A program made the translations under genes and the position numbers. This document shows, in pieces, positions 44,288 through 51,415 of a DNA stretch of 64,000 bases. This DNA is from Candidatus Lustribacter sp. (GTDB lineage Bacteria; Vulcanimicrobiota; Vulcanimicrobiia; Vulcanimicrobiales; Vulcanimicrobiaceae). Positions within the stretch are counted from its first letter, which is position 1. Each line of letters starts with the position of its first letter. The notes beneath the pieces were generated by a model. It was not told where the DNA came from. It ran no database searches and worked only from the letters and a program-made list of their open reading frames with translations. Location of the stretch: the NCBI GenBank assembly GCA_965277805.1, contig OZ255842.1, forward strand, positions 3,808,001 through 3,872,000, read 5' to 3'.

Positions 44288-45085
44288 GTGCCGGATGAGA
44301 CCGCACCTTTTCGGCCGCTCGACGTCGCGCACGTTCGCACGGCGCTGGCCGGTACGCTTTTCGGCGATGTCCGCTATGTGGTGAAGACGGGCTCCACAAA
44401 CGACGATGCAGCGGCGCTGCTGGCGCGCGGCGACGCGCTGGGCACGACCTTAGTCGCTGAAGAGCAGACCGCCGGCCGCGGCCGCAAGGCCGGGCGCAGT
44501 TGGATCGCCGCTCCGGGCAGCGGCCTTTTGTTCACCACGATCCTGCCCGCCACGATGCCCGCGAGCGACCTGTGGGCCGTACCATTTTGGGTCGCGCTGT
44601 GCGTTGCGGACGGAATCATGCGGGCTTGTGCCGTCCACGCCGACCCGCGCTGGCCCAACGATCTGTTCGTTAGAAACAGAAAGGTCGCGGGTATTCTTTG
44701 CATCTCGCGGGTTGCCGGCGACGTCGCGCACGTCGCCTGCGGCGTCGGGATCAACGTGATTCCGGCAGCGGGCGCGCATGTAGCGATCGAACCGCCCCCC
44801 GCGTTCCTTTCCGATGCGGCGCCCTCCGTGCGCCGCGAAGTCGTGCTGAGCGAGGTCTTAGCGGCCTTCGAGCGCCGCCTCGCGTCGCTCCACGCGCCGG
44901 CGGCGATCGCGCGCACGTATGAAGAACGCGCGGCGCTGGCCGGCGCGGCCTACCGCGTGCTGGTCGACGGCGAGTCGCTCGAGTTGGACGGCATCGCACG
45001 CGGCTTGGGGCCCGACGGCGCGCTCCGCCTCGATGTCGGCGGCGTCGAACAGGCGATCTCGCTCGCCGACGCGCGGCGTCTCTAG
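44288..45085 (+). CDS. birA: Biotin-protein ligase (no N-terminal HTH)
   Basis: GSTNDDA, QTAGRGR, WPND, KVAGIL, GVGINV. Confidence 0.95.
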
Positions 45086-45155
45086 GGCCGCCCGCCGGAG
45101 CTACCGCGAGTCGGCCGAAGGCCGAACGCAACAGATTCGCCGAAGGCGAATCCAC

Positions 45156-46196
45156 ATGGGCGAGATCTTGGGACTAGGCATTTCACACTGGCCGCGGTTG
45201 GGTCAGAAGAACGAGCAACTGTCGTATTGGCTGAAGCGGACGCTGCAAGATCCGGATCTCCCGGCGCACTTGAAAGATCCCAAAACGTGGCCGCCGCGCA
45301 TGCAAGAAGAATGGGGCACGGACGAAGGCCTCTCGCACGCGCAAGAGCATCGCGACTCGATGGCTTCGGGCTTACGCGAAGTGCGCAAAGCGCTCGACGC
45401 CTTCAAGCCGGACGCGATCGTGGTGTGGGGTGACGATCAGTACGAAAACTTCCGCGAAGATCTGATCCCGGCATTTTCCGTCCTCGCCTATCAAGACGAT
45501 CTCGTGTGTCAGCCGTGGGGCGGGATGCCCAACTACTGGGACGAGGACAAGGAGACGACGTTCACCGTCAAGAGCGCACCGGAGATCTCGAAGTACCTCG
45601 CCACCGGCATGATCGAAGCAGAATTCGACATCGCCTACGCCTATCGGCCGTTGCACTTTCCGCATCTGCCCCACGCGTTCATGAACACCGTGCTCTATCT
45701 CGATTACGACCGCGTCGGCTTTCCCTATCCGTTGATTCCGTTTCAGGTGAACTGCTACGGGCGCTACGTGATCAGCCACAAGGGCTTCGGGTTTCCGTAT
45801 GCCGAGGCCGACAAGCCGCTCGATCCGCCGTCGCCCTCACCCAAGCGCTGCTTCGATCTCGGCCGCGCGGCCGGACGTGTGCTGGCGAATAGCCCGTGGC
45901 GCATCGCGCTGGTCGCGTCCTCGAGCTGGTCGCACGCGTTCCTCTCCGAGAAGTCGAAACATCTCTGGCCCGACGTCGAGTCCGACCGCAACCTCTACGA
46001 TGCGATGCTGCGCGGCGATTCCGACGTGTGGCGCAACTTCAAGCTCGCCGACATCGAATTCTCAGGCCAGCACGAGCTGCTGAATTGGTTCTGTCTCGTC
46101 GGCGCGATGACCGAACTCAACAAGAAAGTCGTCTGGTCGCAGTTCACCGAGACGTTCGTTTACAACTCGGACAAAGTCGCCGCGATCTTCGGCTGA
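45156..46196 (+). CDS. Class III (LigB-type) extradiol dioxygenase family protein
   Basis: GISHWP, WGDDQYENF, PHAF, SSWSH, ELLNW. Confidence 0.85.
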   Translation: MGEILGLGISHWPRLGQKNEQLSYWLKRTLQDPDLPAHLKDPKTWPPRMQEEWGTDEGLSHAQEHRDSMASGLREVRKALDAFKPDAIVVWGDDQYENFREDLIPAFSVLAYQDDLVCQPWGGMPNYWDEDKETTFTVKSAPEISKYLATGMIEAEFDIAYAYRPLHFPHLPHAFMNTVLYLDYDRVGFPYPLIPFQVNCYGRYVISHKGFGFPYAEADKPLDPPSPSPKRCFDLGRAAGRVLANSPWRIALVASSSWSHAFLSEKSKHLWPDVESDRNLYDAMLRGDSDVWRNFKLADIEFSGQHELLNWFCLVGAMTELNKKVVWSQFTETFVYNSDKVAAIFG

Positions 46197-46199
46197 CGG

Positions 46200-46730
46200 C
46201 TAGCGGTTCGCCCGGCTCCGCTTCTCGCACGCTTCGCAGAAGTTCGAGAATTTGTTGTCGGTGTCGAACACGGAGTTCGAGTAGTACATCGGGCAGCGAG
46301 CGTTGTAGCAGTGCTTGAGGCCCATCGCGTGCCCGATCTCGTGCACCGACTCCTTGAGCAGCCGCTGGAAGAGCAAGTTATCGTCGGCCGGTTCGCCATA
46401 AAATTCGGGCCGCAGGCGATGGAGCGAAACGACGGCGCAGTGATGCGTCTCGGTCGAGCCGCCGAAGATGAAGTGATGCGAGGTCTTGTAGAGGTCGAAC
46501 TCGGTGATGCCGAGCACGGCCCCGTCGCGGCTCTCGTGCGCGGCCGCGAGTTTCGTTGCCAGCGAACCGAAGAACAGCTGCTTGCGTACGCTATTGAGTG
46601 CCGTTTTGGGAATCGGCAGCGACGCGCGCACGATGCAGGTGGAGAGGAATCGCTCCTCGAGGCACAATGCGAGTCGCGTCAGCACTTGGTGGTCGATCAC
46701 GTTGATCGGGACGACGCTGATCTCGCTCAT
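46200..46730 (-). CDS. Archaemetzincin-family Zn metalloprotease
   Basis: HEIGHAMGLKHCYNARCPM...FCEAC. Confidence 0.92.
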   Translation of the reverse strand: MSEISVVPINVIDHQVLTRLALCLEERFLSTCIVRASLPIPKTALNSVRKQLFFGSLATKLAAAHESRDGAVLGITEFDLYKTSHHFIFGGSTETHHCAVVSLHRLRPEFYGEPADDNLLFQRLLKESVHEIGHAMGLKHCYNARCPMYYSNSVFDTDNKFSNFCEACEKRSRANR

Positions 46731-46788: not shown

Positions 46789-47151
46789 ATGATTATCGGG
46801 TTGGGGATCGATTTGGCCGAAGTCGAGCGCTACCAGTTCAGCGATGCCGAGCGCGAGCGCTTCGCCCGCAAAGTATACACGCCCGAAGAGATGCGCTACG
46901 CCATGCGGAAACGTCATTGGGCCGAGCGGCTGGCGGGGTTCTTCGCGGCGAAAGAGGCGACGCGCAAGGCGTTCGGGCACGCGATTCCGTGGCGCGACGT
47001 GGGCGTCACCCACGAACGCTCGGGAAAGCCGACCATTGCGCTCTACGGTAAAGCCGCCGAACTGATCGAGCGCCGCGGCGTCCGGTCGATCCACCTAACG
47101 ATCACGCACACGGCCACGACCGCCGCGGCCGTCGTGATCCTGGAGGGCTGA
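46789..47151 (+). CDS. acpS: Holo-ACP synthase
   Basis: GLGIDL, FAAKEA..KA, SGKP, LTITH. Confidence 0.96.
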   Translation: MIIGLGIDLAEVERYQFSDAERERFARKVYTPEEMRYAMRKRHWAERLAGFFAAKEATRKAFGHAIPWRDVGVTHERSGKPTIALYGKAAELIERRGVRSIHLTITHTATTAAAVVILEG

Positions 47152-48650
47152 TGCGCGCCGTCACCGCCGCACAAATGCGGGCCATCGATGCGGCCGCGGT
47201 CGCGCGCGACGGCGAGGTCGACCTGATGCGGCAGGCCGGCGCCGCCATCGCCCGCGTCGTCCCCCGCTACCGCCAAGACGGGCCGATCATCGCACTCGCC
47301 GGCAACGGCAACAACGGCGGCGACGCCTTTGCGGCGCTGGCGCGGCTCGAGGGCCGGCGCATCCTCTACTACGATCCCGGCGCCAGCTGGGGCGCGGCAC
47401 GCATGCACGCCTTCCAGCGCGCCCGTGCCAGCGGCGTCGAATTGCGGCGCTATCCGGTCAGCGCTGAGGACCTGCGCGACGCCGGCTTGCTGCTCGACGG
47501 ACTGCTCGGCGTGAACGCGCGTTTGCCGCTGGATGCGGCGACGGCGGAACGGGTCCGCGCGATGAACGATGCGCAGGTGCCGATCCTCGCGCTCGACCTC
47601 GCGACCGGCTGCGATCCGACGACGGGCGCACTCGGTGATCCCCACGTGCGCGCGGTCGCGACGGTGGCGCTAGGGCGGCCAAAACTCGGATCGTTCCTCG
47701 ATCCGGGACGCGATGCGACCGGCGACTTGTGGTGCGCGCCCATCGGCATGCACGACGGCGACGCGCGCGGCATCGATCTCGCATCGTACGTGCTGACGGC
47801 GGATGCGTTCGATGCGCTGCGCCCGAAGCGCCCGAACGAATCGGAGAAGCGCAGCGCGGGGGCGCCGCTCGTCATCGCAGGTTCGGAACAGTTTCCCGGC
47901 GCGGCAATTTTGTGCGCGCTCGGCGCCGCTCGCGCCGGCGCCGGCTACGTCACCGTCGCCGCACCGGCGGCGGCCGCCGCGGCGCTGCGCGCCCATCTCA
48001 TCGAACAAGTCGTGGTGACCTACGACGAGAACGACCCCAAAGCGGCGATCGCGGCGATTCTCGATTTGAGCAACCACTGCAACGCGATCGCGATCGGGCC
48101 CGGACTCGGCCTCTCGGACGAAATGGGCGAGATCGTGCGCGGCGTGATGAAGGCAACGCCGTTGCCGATGGTCGCGGACGCGAGCGCGCTCTTTCACATC
48201 GGTAAACACTTACCGGAGTTTGCAGAAAAGCCGCTCGTTCTCACACCGCATGCGGGCGAATTCGCACGGCTCTCCGGGAAAGGCACGGTCGAGCCGAGCG
48301 AACGGCTTCCCCGCCTGCGCGCGTTCGTGGCCGAGTACGGCATCGCAACGCTGTTGAAAGGGCGCACGACGCTGATCGCCGATCGTACGACCGTGCACGT
48401 CAACCCAACCGGCACGCCCGCGCTCGCAACCGCCGGCACCGGCGACGTTCTCACCGGCATCATCGCAACGCTGCTCTCGCAAGGCCTCGCACCGCTCGAT
48501 GCCGCGCGTGCCGGCGCGTTTTGGCACGGGCTTGCCGGCTCGTGCGCGGCGGCCGATCGTCCGGTCGGCGTTATCGCGCGGGACGTTGCCGACGCACTCG
48601 GCCGCGCATCCGACGTCGCGCCCGACGACGATCCAATCCGTATTTGGTAA
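47151..48650 (+). CDS. nnr: NAD(P)H-hydrate epimerase/dehydratase
   Basis: GNGNNGGD, IGPGLG, LTPHAGEF, ATAGTGDVL. Confidence 0.96.
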   Translation: MRAVTAAQMRAIDAAAVARDGEVDLMRQAGAAIARVVPRYRQDGPIIALAGNGNNGGDAFAALARLEGRRILYYDPGASWGAARMHAFQRARASGVELRRYPVSAEDLRDAGLLLDGLLGVNARLPLDAATAERVRAMNDAQVPILALDLATGCDPTTGALGDPHVRAVATVALGRPKLGSFLDPGRDATGDLWCAPIGMHDGDARGIDLASYVLTADAFDALRPKRPNESEKRSAGAPLVIAGSEQFPGAAILCALGAARAGAGYVTVAAPAAAAAALRAHLIEQVVVTYDENDPKAAIAAILDLSNHCNAIAIGPGLGLSDEMGEIVRGVMKATPLPMVADASALFHIGKHLPEFAEKPLVLTPHAGEFARLSGKGTVEPSERLPRLRAFVAEYGIATLLKGRTTLIADRTTVHVNPTGTPALATAGTGDVLTGIIATLLSQGLAPLDAARAGAFWHGLAGSCAAADRPVGVIARDVADALGRASDVAPDDDPIRIW

Positions 48651-48655
48651 CGCGA

Positions 48656-49819
48656 TCAGCGCGCGATGCCGAATCCGGCCGCCTTGACCTTCGGATCGTC
48701 GGAGGCCTCCAAGTAGTCGCGCAGTGTACGCAGAAACACTCCGAATGCGGTGGCACCGAGCAGCCAGAGTTGGCGATCGTCGCTGCTTTCGTCCGGCAGC
48801 GTTTGCATACGATCCCTAGCGTACATCACGCGCAAGTCTTCGACCGCTAAACGGATGAACGCCAACAACTCAAGCTCTGCCGGACGGCCCGGAAAATCGC
48901 TTACCTCGCCGGCGGCGTAACGCGCGAGCCAGCGGGCCAGCGCACCGTAGTCCTTGGGATCGACGCGGCTCACGCCGGTTCTCGGATGCACGCGATCGCG
49001 CGTTGCTTCGACTTCGGCGACGAAATCGATCGAACGCGCCTGCGCTTGTACCTCGACGCCCGAGGCTTGCATCGGCGCAGCCCGTTCCGTCCGCTCAGCC
49101 GCTACGAAATCCAGTAGCACCGGGCCTTCGGACGCGGCTAATGTCGAGAACGCGAGATCGAGAACGGCGCGCTGTTCGCGAGCGTCGTTACGGTGGCCGA
49201 CGGAGATGCCGAACGGAAACGGCACCCACACCGTGCGCGGCGGTTTGATGCGCAGCGAATGTTCGCGCACCAAACTGAGCGCCACCGTGCTCAATCCCCG
49301 TTCTTCCAAAACCCGTGCGATCACACCGACCGTGTGAGTGCACAGCGGTCAAGTCGGCGTGAGTAAGACGACGTCGACGCCGTCTTCGAGCAGGTGCGCC
49401 GCTACTTCGGGCGCCATCGCGTTCTTGATCGGCGCGACGTCGCGTTGCGCACCCATGAACGAGTAGAAGCGCGGGGCGAGTTCGCCGATCTTGCCCTCGG
49501 CCACCATCTCGCGCAGGCGGTCGATCGGATACACCACGTTGGGGTCGGCCATGATGCCGGTGCGGTCGAAACCGAGGCTGGTGTGGCTCTGCAAGAGATC
49601 CGCACCATCGGTCGCCGACGGAATCATCCGGTACGTCGGATCGCCGGCCACGAACGGTTTGTCGCCGGGCAGATGAACGCCGGCCGTCGTGACGATCGCG
49701 ACGCGCGATTGGGCGAGCGGTTTCGCCGGCCGATGGAACGGCGTCGACGTGACCTCCTCGATCGCGAGCGAGAGAATTCCTTGACGCGCGGTTTCCGAAA
49801 GGCGGTCGAGCGACGGCAT
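48656..49819 (-). CDS. PrdB/GrdB-family selenoprotein (387 aa, Sec157 in UxxC) with C-terminal extension
   Basis: ORFs 49349-49819 and 48656-49324 share a frame and join through TGA at 49349-49351: VLLTPT-U-PLCTHTVGVIAR; VTTAG, DPNVVYPIDRL, YSFMG. Confidence 0.88.
49313..49348 (-). other. Bacterial SECIS-like hairpin
   Basis: CUGUGC/GCACGG lower stem, UCACAC/GUGUGA upper stem, GGUCG loop beginning 17 nt after the UGA. Confidence 0.7.
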
Positions 49820-49939
49820 CTTGTTCCTTTCGTGAAGCGGGGAATAGTCTCCGGTTCACCGGTCGACTTTTGTCGTCTAAGAATTTGAAAGCACGAATCG
49901 GGTCGCGTTGCAGCGTTCGTTTCGGGCATAATAGACGGG

Positions 49940-51415
49940 ATGCGGATTTCGGCGACCCAGTTGTTCATCGGCGTGATTCTGGCCGGCCAGTTCATGGCCA
50001 ACATGGATACGGCAATCATCAACGTGGCCACACCCTCGATCGGCCACACGCTGCACGCCTCGGGCGCCGAGCTGCAACTGACCGTGTCGGTGTACGTGCT
50101 CGCCACGGCGATGCTGTTGATCACCGGCGCGCGACTGGGAACGCTTTACGGTTACCGTCGCATCTTCTTGATCGGGCTCGCCACGTTTACGCTCGCCTCG
50201 CTCGCCTGCGGGATCGCTCCCAACACGCTGACGCTGATCGTTGCGCGCATCGTGCAAGGTTTCGGCTCGGCGCTGCTCGTCGCTCAAGTGATCAGCGGCA
50301 TCCAGCGCACCTTGACCGGCCACGCGCGCACCAAAGCGATCGGCAGCTACACGCTGACGCTTTCGCTCGCGGCCGTCGTCGGGCAGATTCTCGGCGGCTG
50401 GCTTATCACGGTCGACCTCTTCGGACTTGCGTGGCGGCCGCTGTTCCTGATCAACGTGCCGATCGGTATTGCCTTGTTCGTGCCGGCGCTGATCGTCATG
50501 CCGCGCGACGAACCATTCGCCGGCCCGCGGCCGTCGCTAGACTGGCTCGGCGTCGCGCTCCTAGGCGGCTCGATGCTGTTGATGGTCTTCCCGCTGACCG
50601 TCGGCCGCGAGATGCAGTGGCCGCCGTGGACGTTCGCGTCGCTCGTCGCGAGCGTGGCGGGAACGGCCGCGTTCTTCCTCTGGCAGCGTCATCTCGCCGC
50701 GCTCAATCGCAGCCCACTGCTCAACCTCACGCTCTTTCGCGAACCCGGCGTCGTTCCGGGACTCGGCACGCAGATGCTCGCACGAGTCACCTACTTCACG
50801 CTTCTGTTCGTGCTTGCACTCTTCGTACAGAACGGTCTCGGGGAGAGCGCGCTCGTCTCGGGCCTCTCGCTGATCTTCTGGGTGCTGATGTATGGTATCG
50901 CCGGGCCGATCTACCCGCGTTTACCGCACCGCATCGCGATTCTCTGCGGCTCGGTGGGCGCGCTGATCACCGCAACGTCGTTCGGCGCTACCGCAGTCGC
51001 TGCAGCGTTCGATGCCGCCAACCCGTGGTTGATCACGTTTTTACTCGGCGCCGGCGGCTTCGGTTTCGGACTGCTGCAAACCGCAATCACCACGCAGCTA
51101 ACCTCGGCGATTCCCAAAGAGCGCGCGCCCGACTTGAGCGGCGTGATCGCTACGACCGTGCCGCTCTGTGCGGTCATCGGCATTGCGACTTACGGCAGCA
51201 TCTACATCGAGCTCGCCGCACCCGGCGGCCGGGTCGCAGCGATGCATGCGTTCGCGATCGTCAACGCATTCTTCGCGGTGACGGCGGCGGCCGCTGCGAT
51301 GACGGGCCGGAGAGCCGCGCTAGGAAGCGAACGAGTACGAGCGTTGCGGGAGCATGCGCAGCGTCTCGATCTCGTGGAGAACGTCGAGCGGAATCGTAAC
51401 GTCGGCGTAGCGTGA
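49940..51415 (+). CDS. MFS drug-efflux transporter (DHA2-like)
   Basis: DTAIINVA.P, GARLG..YGYRR, ARIVQG, LFLINVPIG. Confidence 0.92.
   Translation: MRISATQLFIGVILAGQFMANMDTAIINVATPSIGHTLHASGAELQLTVSVYVLATAMLLITGARLGTLYGYRRIFLIGLATFTLASLACGIAPNTLTLIVARIVQGFGSALLVAQVISGIQRTLTGHARTKAIGSYTLTLSLAAVVGQILGGWLITVDLFGLAWRPLFLINVPIGIALFVPALIVMPRDEPFAGPRPSLDWLGVALLGGSMLLMVFPLTVGREMQWPPWTFASLVASVAGTAAFFLWQRHLAALNRSPLLNLTLFREPGVVPGLGTQMLARVTYFTLLFVLALFVQNGLGESALVSGLSLIFWVLMYGIAGPIYPRLPHRIAILCGSVGALITATSFGATAVAAAFDAANPWLITFLLGAGGFGFGLLQTAITTQLTSAIPKERAPDLSGVIATTVPLCAVIGIATYGSIYIELAAPGGRVAAMHAFAIVNAFFAVTAAAAAMTGRRAALGSERVRALREHAQRLDLVENVERNRNVGVA

Follow-up and report, generated by a model that had tools for sequence, protein, structure and literature searches.

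A probable long-form PrdB-like selenoprotein encoded across an in-frame UGA in Candidatus Lustribacter sp.

Among the closest described relatives of the protein treated here are PrdB and GrdB, the selenocysteine (Sec)-containing B subunits of D-proline and glycine reductase. According to excerpts of a study of the proline enzyme, true PrdB is active only with PrdA that has been processed by PrdH, and its U151C variant is inactive (PMC11229817). The family was also catalogued in sequence surveys: that of the Sargasso Sea in 2005 lists a "Proline reductase PrdB" with a UxxC motif, represented by 42 Sec sequences and one cysteine (Cys) sequence (PMC1088965), and Table 2 of the 2008 Global Ocean Sampling survey gives pfam07355, again with UxxC, 235 Sec and 110 Cys sequences (PMC2398784). 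"Proline reductase PrdB" has been listed for non-Stickland genomes as well, for example Anaeromyxobacter (PMC1794560), and a 2026 review, as far as its excerpts go, treats D-proline reductase only as a clostridial enzyme (PMC13188914). Here we describe a gene of this family found in a stretch of 64,000 nucleotides from Candidatus Lustribacter sp. (assembly GCA_965277805.1, contig OZ255842.1, positions 3,808,001 to 3,872,000), which we call the window. We estimate at about 85% the probability that this gene, at 48656..49819 on the minus strand, encodes as one unit a 387-residue selenoprotein of an orphan long-form "PrdB-like" branch of the GrdB/PrdB family.

The frame opens with the ATG at 49819-49817, meets an in-frame TGA at 49349-49351 and then stays open down to the terminal stop, which is a TGA too (48656-48658). 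With translation table 11, the gene appears as two open reading frames (ORFs) in the same frame, 49819..49349 (156 amino acids) and 49324..48656 (222 amino acids, from an internal GTG), with one TGA between them; read-through gives a product of 387 residues carrying the motif T-P-T-U157-P-L-C160. ORF calling and translation agree on this point with an earlier note on the same DNA, made from its letters alone, which had described two same-frame ORFs split by the single TGA and a read-through product with TPT-U-PLC. The whole gene, 387 codons and the terminal TGA, is covered by two full-length alignments, one with 15 Cys forms and one with 38 homologues. With the two closest orthologues as references, the ratio of nonsynonymous to synonymous substitution rates (dN/dS) amounts to 0.04 and 0.31 for the part upstream of the UGA. 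For the downstream part the values are 0.11 and 0.26, which indicates that this part is translated in the same frame.

A search of protein databases (E ≤ 0.001) returned 137 proteins, among them full-length sequences of about 395 amino acids and many fragments of 222-230 amino acids which match only the part after the TGA, that is, the C-terminal 57% of the query. Fragments of this kind, entered as "hypothetical proteins", are also what a true stop would produce, and table-11 gene callers split the window gene in just this way; the TGA would then mark either a pseudogene or two genes, one for a 156-residue product and one for a 222-residue product starting at the GTG at 49324. The codon itself speaks for the other interpretation. 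In the 15 full-length aligned database homologues, C157 and C160 are present without exception. A scan of species-representative genomes found at least 595 relatives among at least 601 pattern matches, and in the best 80 of these loci the codon at the Sec site (49349..49351, minus strand, in the window) is TGA in 79 and TAG in one; Cys or TGA at residue 157 of the homologues was the check that the earlier note had proposed, and a stop codon at 80 of 80 genome loci, next to Cys in all the full-length database proteins, bears its reading out. Over 159 tallied loci from many phyla, which include the metagenome sequences described below, the site holds a stop in 154 and Cys in 5.

The single TAG locus belongs to Geodermatophilus chilensis, in which the best tRNA-Sec match (65.1 bits) has the anticodon CTA. 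A second Geodermatophilaceae genome shows the same combination, a TAG Sec codon together with a tRNA-Sec (66.9 bits) whose anticodon is CTA, so that the codon tracks the tRNA-Sec anticodon. Both a tRNA-Sec(CUA) and genes with UAG as Sec codon were published for Geodermatophilaceae; the UAG-Sec proteins named in the excerpts of that paper are formate dehydrogenase, UGSC and AhpC, the PrdB-like family not being among these (PMC5330540). We also observed that ARAGORN calls the CTA-anticodon tRNA-Sec of both genomes tRNA-Pyl.

The machinery for Sec incorporation, whose absence from the genome the earlier note had considered as a possible refutation, is present: selA (481.9 bits), selB (303.5), selD (379.8) and a tRNA-Sec (75.8 bits) with anticodon TCA were all found, selA and selB being adjacent. 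The same genome has a classical selenoprotein, an FdhA gene with one in-frame TGA (G000:C1:3158410-3161439, minus strand; TIGR01553, 983 bits summed). Finally, homology to PrdB and GrdB crosses the TGA of the window gene, the model TIGR04483 covering residues 20-225 with an E-value of 1.3e-40. As judged from these comparisons of sequence, the reading of UGA-157 as selenocysteine is strongly supported.

Bacterial Sec insertion sequence (SECIS) elements are expected to be hairpins spaced just after the UGA, with a G in the apical loop. In the window, the SECIS-like hairpin (49313..49345, minus strand) consists of a lower stem pairing 49345-49340 with 49318-49313, an upper stem pairing 49337-49332 with 49326-49321 and a loop, GGUCG, at 49331-49327. 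The two-stem hairpin with a G-led loop announced in the earlier note is real, but the 17 nt at which the note placed it is the distance after which the loop starts, the hairpin itself starting 3 nt past the UGA.

We compared the hairpin over a gap-free alignment of the 80 genome sequences. A stem of 5 base pairs (offsets 15-19 and 25-29 from the U of the UGA) closing a 5-nt loop is kept through compensatory change: pair 25:33 is AU in 41 sequences, GC in 37 and GU in 2, and is broken in none; pair 23:35 is AU in 64, GC in 11 and GU in 3, with 2 broken; pair 22:36 is CG in 74, UA in 4 and AU in 2, with 6 double changes; pair 24:34 is CG in 75, UG in 3 and UA in 2, with 2 double changes. Both pair 26:32, always CG, and the second loop base, always G, are invariant (80/80). 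Since column 25 corresponds to the first position of a Thr/Ala codon and column 33 to a synonymous third base, the covariation acts at the RNA level. The full 12-pair structure reaches a covariation score of 0.242, to be compared with 0.143 ± 0.008 for shuffled alignments, none of 500 attaining the observed value. Only the upper stem and the two adjoining pairs of the lower stem (columns 17:41 and 18:40) are family-wide. The remainder of the lower stem is confined to the close relatives of the window, pairs 13:45, 15:43 and 16:42 being unpaired in 41, 63 and 42 of the 80 sequences. Rfam has no family matching at the hairpin.

A control was provided by forms with Cys at the site. For this purpose, 80 metagenome loci were fetched with Cys forms as the query (from among at least 587 matching metagenome stretches). 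The stem keeps 5 of its 5 pairs in all 74 metagenome loci with TGA, and 2, 4, 2, 3 and 1 of 5 in the five loci with TGC or TGT; one locus, with a U-L-L-C variant, was excluded from the tally. Among the genome loci, 77 with TGA and the one with TAG have 5/5 pairs, and two with TGA have 4/5. The stem is thus complete in 152 of the 154 stop-codon forms and in none of the 5 Cys forms, which keep 1-4 of the 5 pairs. The excluded U-L-L-C homologue shows the sole departure from Pro at position +1 among 160 loci. The Cys paralogues of the organism's own genome were also tried as a control and turned out to be uninformative: they belong to a different, short branch and retain 3-4 of the 5 pairs in a GC-rich sequence. 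The position of the hairpin and the invariant G of its loop fit a bacterial SECIS, and the preservation of the hairpin where the codon is a stop, together with its decay where the codon is Cys, strongly supports this candidate assignment. In distant shorter relatives at three loci in genomes of the same phylum, with the motif L-L-A-P-A-U-P-I-C-H-Q, a different hairpin lies further downstream of the UGA; the SECIS appears to be remodelled between branches.

These data bear directly on the possibility that the TGA is a true stop. A stop at this codon in 154 of 159 loci from many phyla, with the hairpin stem complete in all but two of the 154, speaks against decaying or separate genes; moreover, each Cys form is one ORF, purifying selection acts on both halves of the gene, and AlphaFold2 folds the two halves as one unit (see below). 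The stop also switches to TAG exactly where the anticodon of tRNA-Sec is CTA. We hold a true stop to be extremely improbable, and return to the single selenoprotein gene.

The assignment of this selenoprotein to the GrdB/PrdB family relies on several profiles. PF07355 (GRDB) matches residues 19-156 (E 2.7e-16, score 60.2 for a cut-off of 22) over profile positions 207-347. The best NCBIfam model is the PrdB equivalog TIGR04483, in which residues 20-225 align to profile positions 11-216 of 238; the score is 139.4 bits, for a cut-off of 300. The protein barely passes the family-level model TIGR01918 (68.1 against 65.45), and the GrdB equivalog TIGR01917 gives 61.8 bits against 602.2. As references, we used proteins from two Clostridia-class genomes: a PrdB (TIGR04483, 401.8 against 300) encoded beside PrdA (866.8 against 700), and a bona fide GrdB (TIGR01917, 643.5 against 602.2) encoded beside GrdE. 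The window protein has in common with both G47, H79, D85, D92, P98, G109, G123, A140, V148, D149, V151, T154, U157, C160, E172, G175, R195 and G204, the positions of U157 and C160 being invariant in the alignment. The motif itself differs, being U-G-T-C in the two bona fide reductases and U-P-x-C in the window family.

The likeness to PrdB extends over nearly the whole of that protein: its sequence is homologous to the core of the window protein, with Sec at the same position, Cys three residues on and a SECIS right after the UGA. However, PrdB is a single-domain protein of about 240 residues which ends near residue 240 of the window protein, whereas the latter has 387 residues, about 150 of them additional at the C-terminal end, and no PrdA or PrdH partner was found in its genome. 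In the case of GrdB, it is the C-terminal half which is homologous to the window core and has the Sec and Cys positions in common; GrdB differs by a domain of about 200 residues at the N-terminal side, without counterpart in the window protein, and by the motif U-G-T-C-T-R-C.

The structure was modelled with AlphaFold2 from an alignment of 39 sequences. The whole protein is predicted as one compact unit, with a mean predicted local distance difference test (pLDDT) of 90.7 and a predicted template modelling score (pTM) of 0.88. Its PrdB/GrdB-like core (residues 20-225, window 49145..49762, minus strand), defined by TIGR04483, PF07355 and the model, is Rossmann-like alpha/beta and contains U157 and C160, the former at the start of helix 158-173, which follows strand 150-154. 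The VIA-wide comparison of the whole model gave only generic Rossmann-like matches, the best with a Z of 8.8 and a root-mean-square deviation (rmsd) of 4.6 over 142 aligned residues (residues 33-249); Foldseek against the PDB found no match at E ≤ 0.001, and a sequence-profile search of the PDB none below E 0.15.

Behind the core, residues 250-387 (48659..49072, minus strand) constitute a C-terminal all-helical domain, delimited by the alignments and the model. Modelled alone, it forms seven helices with a pLDDT of 95.2, and its best PDB match has a Z of 5.2 and an rmsd of 4.4 over 92 aligned residues; no Pfam family matches it. The roughly 150 extra C-terminal residues pointed out in the earlier note are indeed present and conserved across the long-form family, with E269, D328, Y333, W352 and T357 retained, and both PrdB and GrdB are without this domain. 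We considered whether the domain could be a fused piece of PrdA or GrdE and rejected it, since hhalign of the family profile gave a probability of 0.1% for a bona fide PrdA and of 0.5% for a GrdE. Fold searches without a clear match do not establish a new fold.

Could the protein nevertheless be a true B subunit of one of the reductases for D-proline, glycine, sarcosine or betaine, with a pyruvoyl-carrying partner whose gene lies elsewhere or has diverged beyond recognition? Of the curated models, that of PrdB is the closest (E 1.3e-40), the family-level threshold is passed, H79, D85, D92, R195, U157 and C160 are common to bona fide PrdB and GrdB, and the Cys homologues bear the label "D-proline reductase (dithiol) PrdB" in their source databases. 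Still, the equivalog score is less than half of its cut-off (139.4 against 300), the motif is U-P-x-C and not U-G-T-C, and an extra domain of 150 residues is present. The partner subunits were searched for in the window genome, a single contig of 5.53 Mb with an estimated completeness of 95%. PF09338 (GrdE/PrdA) has no match there, nor in 5 other carrier genomes; this absence is meaningful because the same search finds strong matches in 7 of 61 Clostridia-class genomes (and none in the built-in control genomes). PF04723 (GrdA) has no match in the window genome either, in a search that had no positive control, no control genome being matched. No neighbour is conserved, the best clusters comprising 15 of 81 and 6 of about 79 loci, and in true Prd systems PrdB needs both PrdA and PrdH, as stated in the excerpts already cited (PMC11229817). 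A B subunit of this kind seems to us quite improbable, and Stickland reduction of D-proline or glycine is most likely not the function of the enzyme. The earlier note had drawn the same conclusion, in part from the lack of prdA/grdE and grdA nearby, and it holds: none of these genes was found near the window gene or, with the limit just given for GrdA, elsewhere in the genome, and the sub-threshold PrdB score, the missing PrdA/GrdE gene in a search with a working control and the extra domain all point the same way. Its description of the enzyme as "single-chain", in the sense of having no protein partner, goes too far, as it rests on missing neighbours.

Several points weigh against the long-form selenoprotein as we describe it. 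The window sequence folded alone has a minimum free energy of -33.2 kcal/mol, close to the -29.8 ± 3.1 of its shuffles (z -1.1), 27 of 200 of which fold as well; the support for the hairpin comes from the comparison across homologues, the lone fold being no better than chance. In that comparison, the tested structure had been taken from the window sequence itself, and it was evaluated in a conserved coding region and on related sequences, which inflates the pair counts; sliding the partner by +2 still leaves 57% of the cells paired. The control with Cys forms at the DNA level consists of 5 forms only. At an estimated completeness of 95%, the genome could contain a partner subunit that is distant or unrecognisable. 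Lastly, neither a fold match nor a conserved neighbour backs what we infer below on the redox mechanism, on the part played by the C-terminal domain and on the reductant.

In the window, the gene is flanked by a convergent gene for an NAD(P)H-hydrate epimerase/dehydratase (47151-48650) and a divergent gene for an MFS transporter (49940-51415), and because of these orientations it appears monocistronic. A probable ribosome-binding site, AAGGAA, can be read 4 nt before the ATG (49824..49829, minus strand); scans for promoters and terminators gave no match. Two further genes are ordinary neighbours with no evident link to it: a peptidase M54 (archaemetzincin-like) gene at 46200-46730 (minus strand) and a gene with a LigB-type extradiol dioxygenase domain at 44919-46196 (plus strand). 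When ORFs within about 4.5 kb were compared at 81 loci, no conserved operon partner was found, the best cluster being an MBL-fold gene on the opposite strand (15 loci); about 79 metagenome loci with flanks of at most 3 kb gave none either, with enoyl-CoA hydratase as the best cluster (6 loci). These clusters support no functional inference.

The genome contains five PF07355 genes: the window gene, one more Sec long form and three short Cys forms. The Sec long-form paralogue (G000:C1:2097574-2098764) is 58% identical to the window protein and has the same motif, T-P-T-U-P-L-C; it lies in the gene order MarR, YCII, paralogue, GcvH, unknown ORF, VOC dioxygenase. The short paralogues (G000:C1:1531376-1531942, 2106667-2107233 and 2201998-2202567) are near-identical, with open frames of 294-311 amino acids, Cys in a C-P-A-C motif and no C-terminal domain. 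A YCII-domain gene precedes the last two of these as well as the Sec paralogue; the YCII copy next to 2201998-2202567 is 94% identical to that of the Sec paralogue, and the copy next to 2106667-2107233 85%. A genome of the same genus carries a Sec version of the short form.

The GcvH gene next to the Sec paralogue deserves attention. The other GcvH of the genome adjoins gcvT, the gcvT-gcvH pair lying at about 5.219 Mb, so the one beside the paralogue is an extra copy. GcvH is found directly downstream of the family gene in this paralogue, in Geodermatophilus chilensis, in the second Geodermatophilaceae genome and in Pseudonocardia nigra, and is absent from that place at the other 78 of the 80 genome loci and, except for the paralogue's own locus, throughout a locus set that includes the 80 metagenome loci. 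A wider scan for GcvH linkage found the query protein in 1 of 301 genomes of its class (its own) and in 2 of 81 of its family, too few for a test of linkage. The recurring neighbour is a weak functional lead. With this paralogue's GcvH in mind, we remark that the window also contains, at 44288-45085 (plus strand) and some 3.6 kb from the selenoprotein gene, a gene for a member of the biotin/lipoate A/B protein ligase family; this may be a coincidence.

A mechanism can be proposed on the model of the known reductases. The hairpin would be bound by SelB carrying Sec-tRNA(UCA), and in the finished protein Sec157 and Cys160, at the N-terminal end of the helix that follows a beta-strand, would constitute a selenol/thiol redox pair. 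The selenolate would attack the bound substrate or a disulfide, and the formation of a Se-S bond with Cys160 would resolve the intermediate, a scheme already suggested for PrdB and GrdB. H79, D85, D92 and R195 of the core are retained in common with the true reductases, and the pyruvoyl-carrying partner subunit appears to be absent; the branch-specific helical domain, which in the predicted model packs against the core so that the two make up one unit, may form the substrate pocket which PrdA or GrdE supplies otherwise. Thioredoxin or another cellular dithiol, in some lineages possibly lipoyl-GcvH, might return the oxidised enzyme to its reduced state. In EC 1.21.4.1 the reductant is given as dihydrolipoate, which makes a lipoyl-protein donor an attractive idea; a GcvH donor is weakly supported.

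The same neighbour can be read in another way, the protein being a thioredoxin- or glutaredoxin-like protein-disulfide oxidoreductase that acts on protein thiols, for example those of lipoyl-GcvH, rather than a reductase of small molecules. The arrangement of its strand, U-P-x-C and helix resembles that of glutaredoxin CPxC sites, and GcvH directly follows the family gene in four genomes of three lineages, the copy at the paralogue being an extra one apart from gcvT-gcvH. Glutaredoxin profiles match residues 147-178 as well, at E-values of 0.15-0.9 that are not significant. The fold, however, is Rossmann-like and not that of thioredoxin, the residues in common with the substrate-cleaving reductases are retained, GcvH adjoins only 2 of the 80 genome loci and is missing from the set with the metagenome loci save for the paralogue's own, and the window gene has no adjoining GcvH. 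We therefore judge such an oxidoreductase highly improbable. A somewhat different and speculative proposal, which we also consider unlikely, keeps the reductase chemistry: the long forms would be self-contained Se-dependent reductases of aerobes, in which the helical domain replaces the pyruvoyl subunit and the dihydrolipoyl group on the extra GcvH serves as the reductant, or GcvH itself is the substrate. If it were true, it would mean a new oxygen-compatible metabolic role for selenocysteine in soil and ocean bacteria.

The family to which we assign the long-form selenoprotein is large, with matches in at least 595 species genomes and at least 587 metagenome stretches. Of 201 sampled genomes from the phylum of the window, 15 have a relative at E ≤ 1e-20, and each long-form match contains one TGA. 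The "PrdB" family of the metagenome surveys resembles it in being PF07355 with UxxC, in having more Sec than Cys forms and in occurring in aerobic, non-Stickland settings; full-length homologues 40-50% identical to the window protein lie on marine metagenome contigs, including those of Tara. It differs in that the surveys, in their excerpts, file the family under D-proline reductase and discuss neither the absence of PrdA nor the C-terminal domain, and in that the window member comes from a soil-type lineage. The metagenome family is probably the same as the long form. The novelty implied by the word "hidden" in the earlier note does not stand, the family having been catalogued as "Proline reductase PrdB" since 2005. 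Our literature searches found no paper pairing "PrdB-like" with "selenoprotein"; for PrdB with GcvH and lipoyl, no "PrdB" occurred among the matches listed, and for a proline reductase selenoprotein in Dehalococcoidia, SAR202, Rokubacteria or Eremiobacterota, none of those listed looked relevant from the title or the opening of the abstract.

The window gene is thus a further member of a known family, mis-split by standard annotation, and no new kind of system. Standard annotation yields a protein of 156 amino acids and a "hypothetical protein" of 222, and the recognition of the Sec codon restores one real enzyme. Besides FdhA, the genome thereby has a second reason to retain its machinery for Sec. 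To the family as a whole, the present comparison contributes a codon that covaries with the tRNA anticodon, a SECIS that decays in Cys forms and, in GcvH, one weak functional lead. This family is large, mostly Sec-containing and found in aerobes, yet databases and surveys continue to class it with an anaerobic Stickland enzyme, the partner subunit of which is missing from these organisms.

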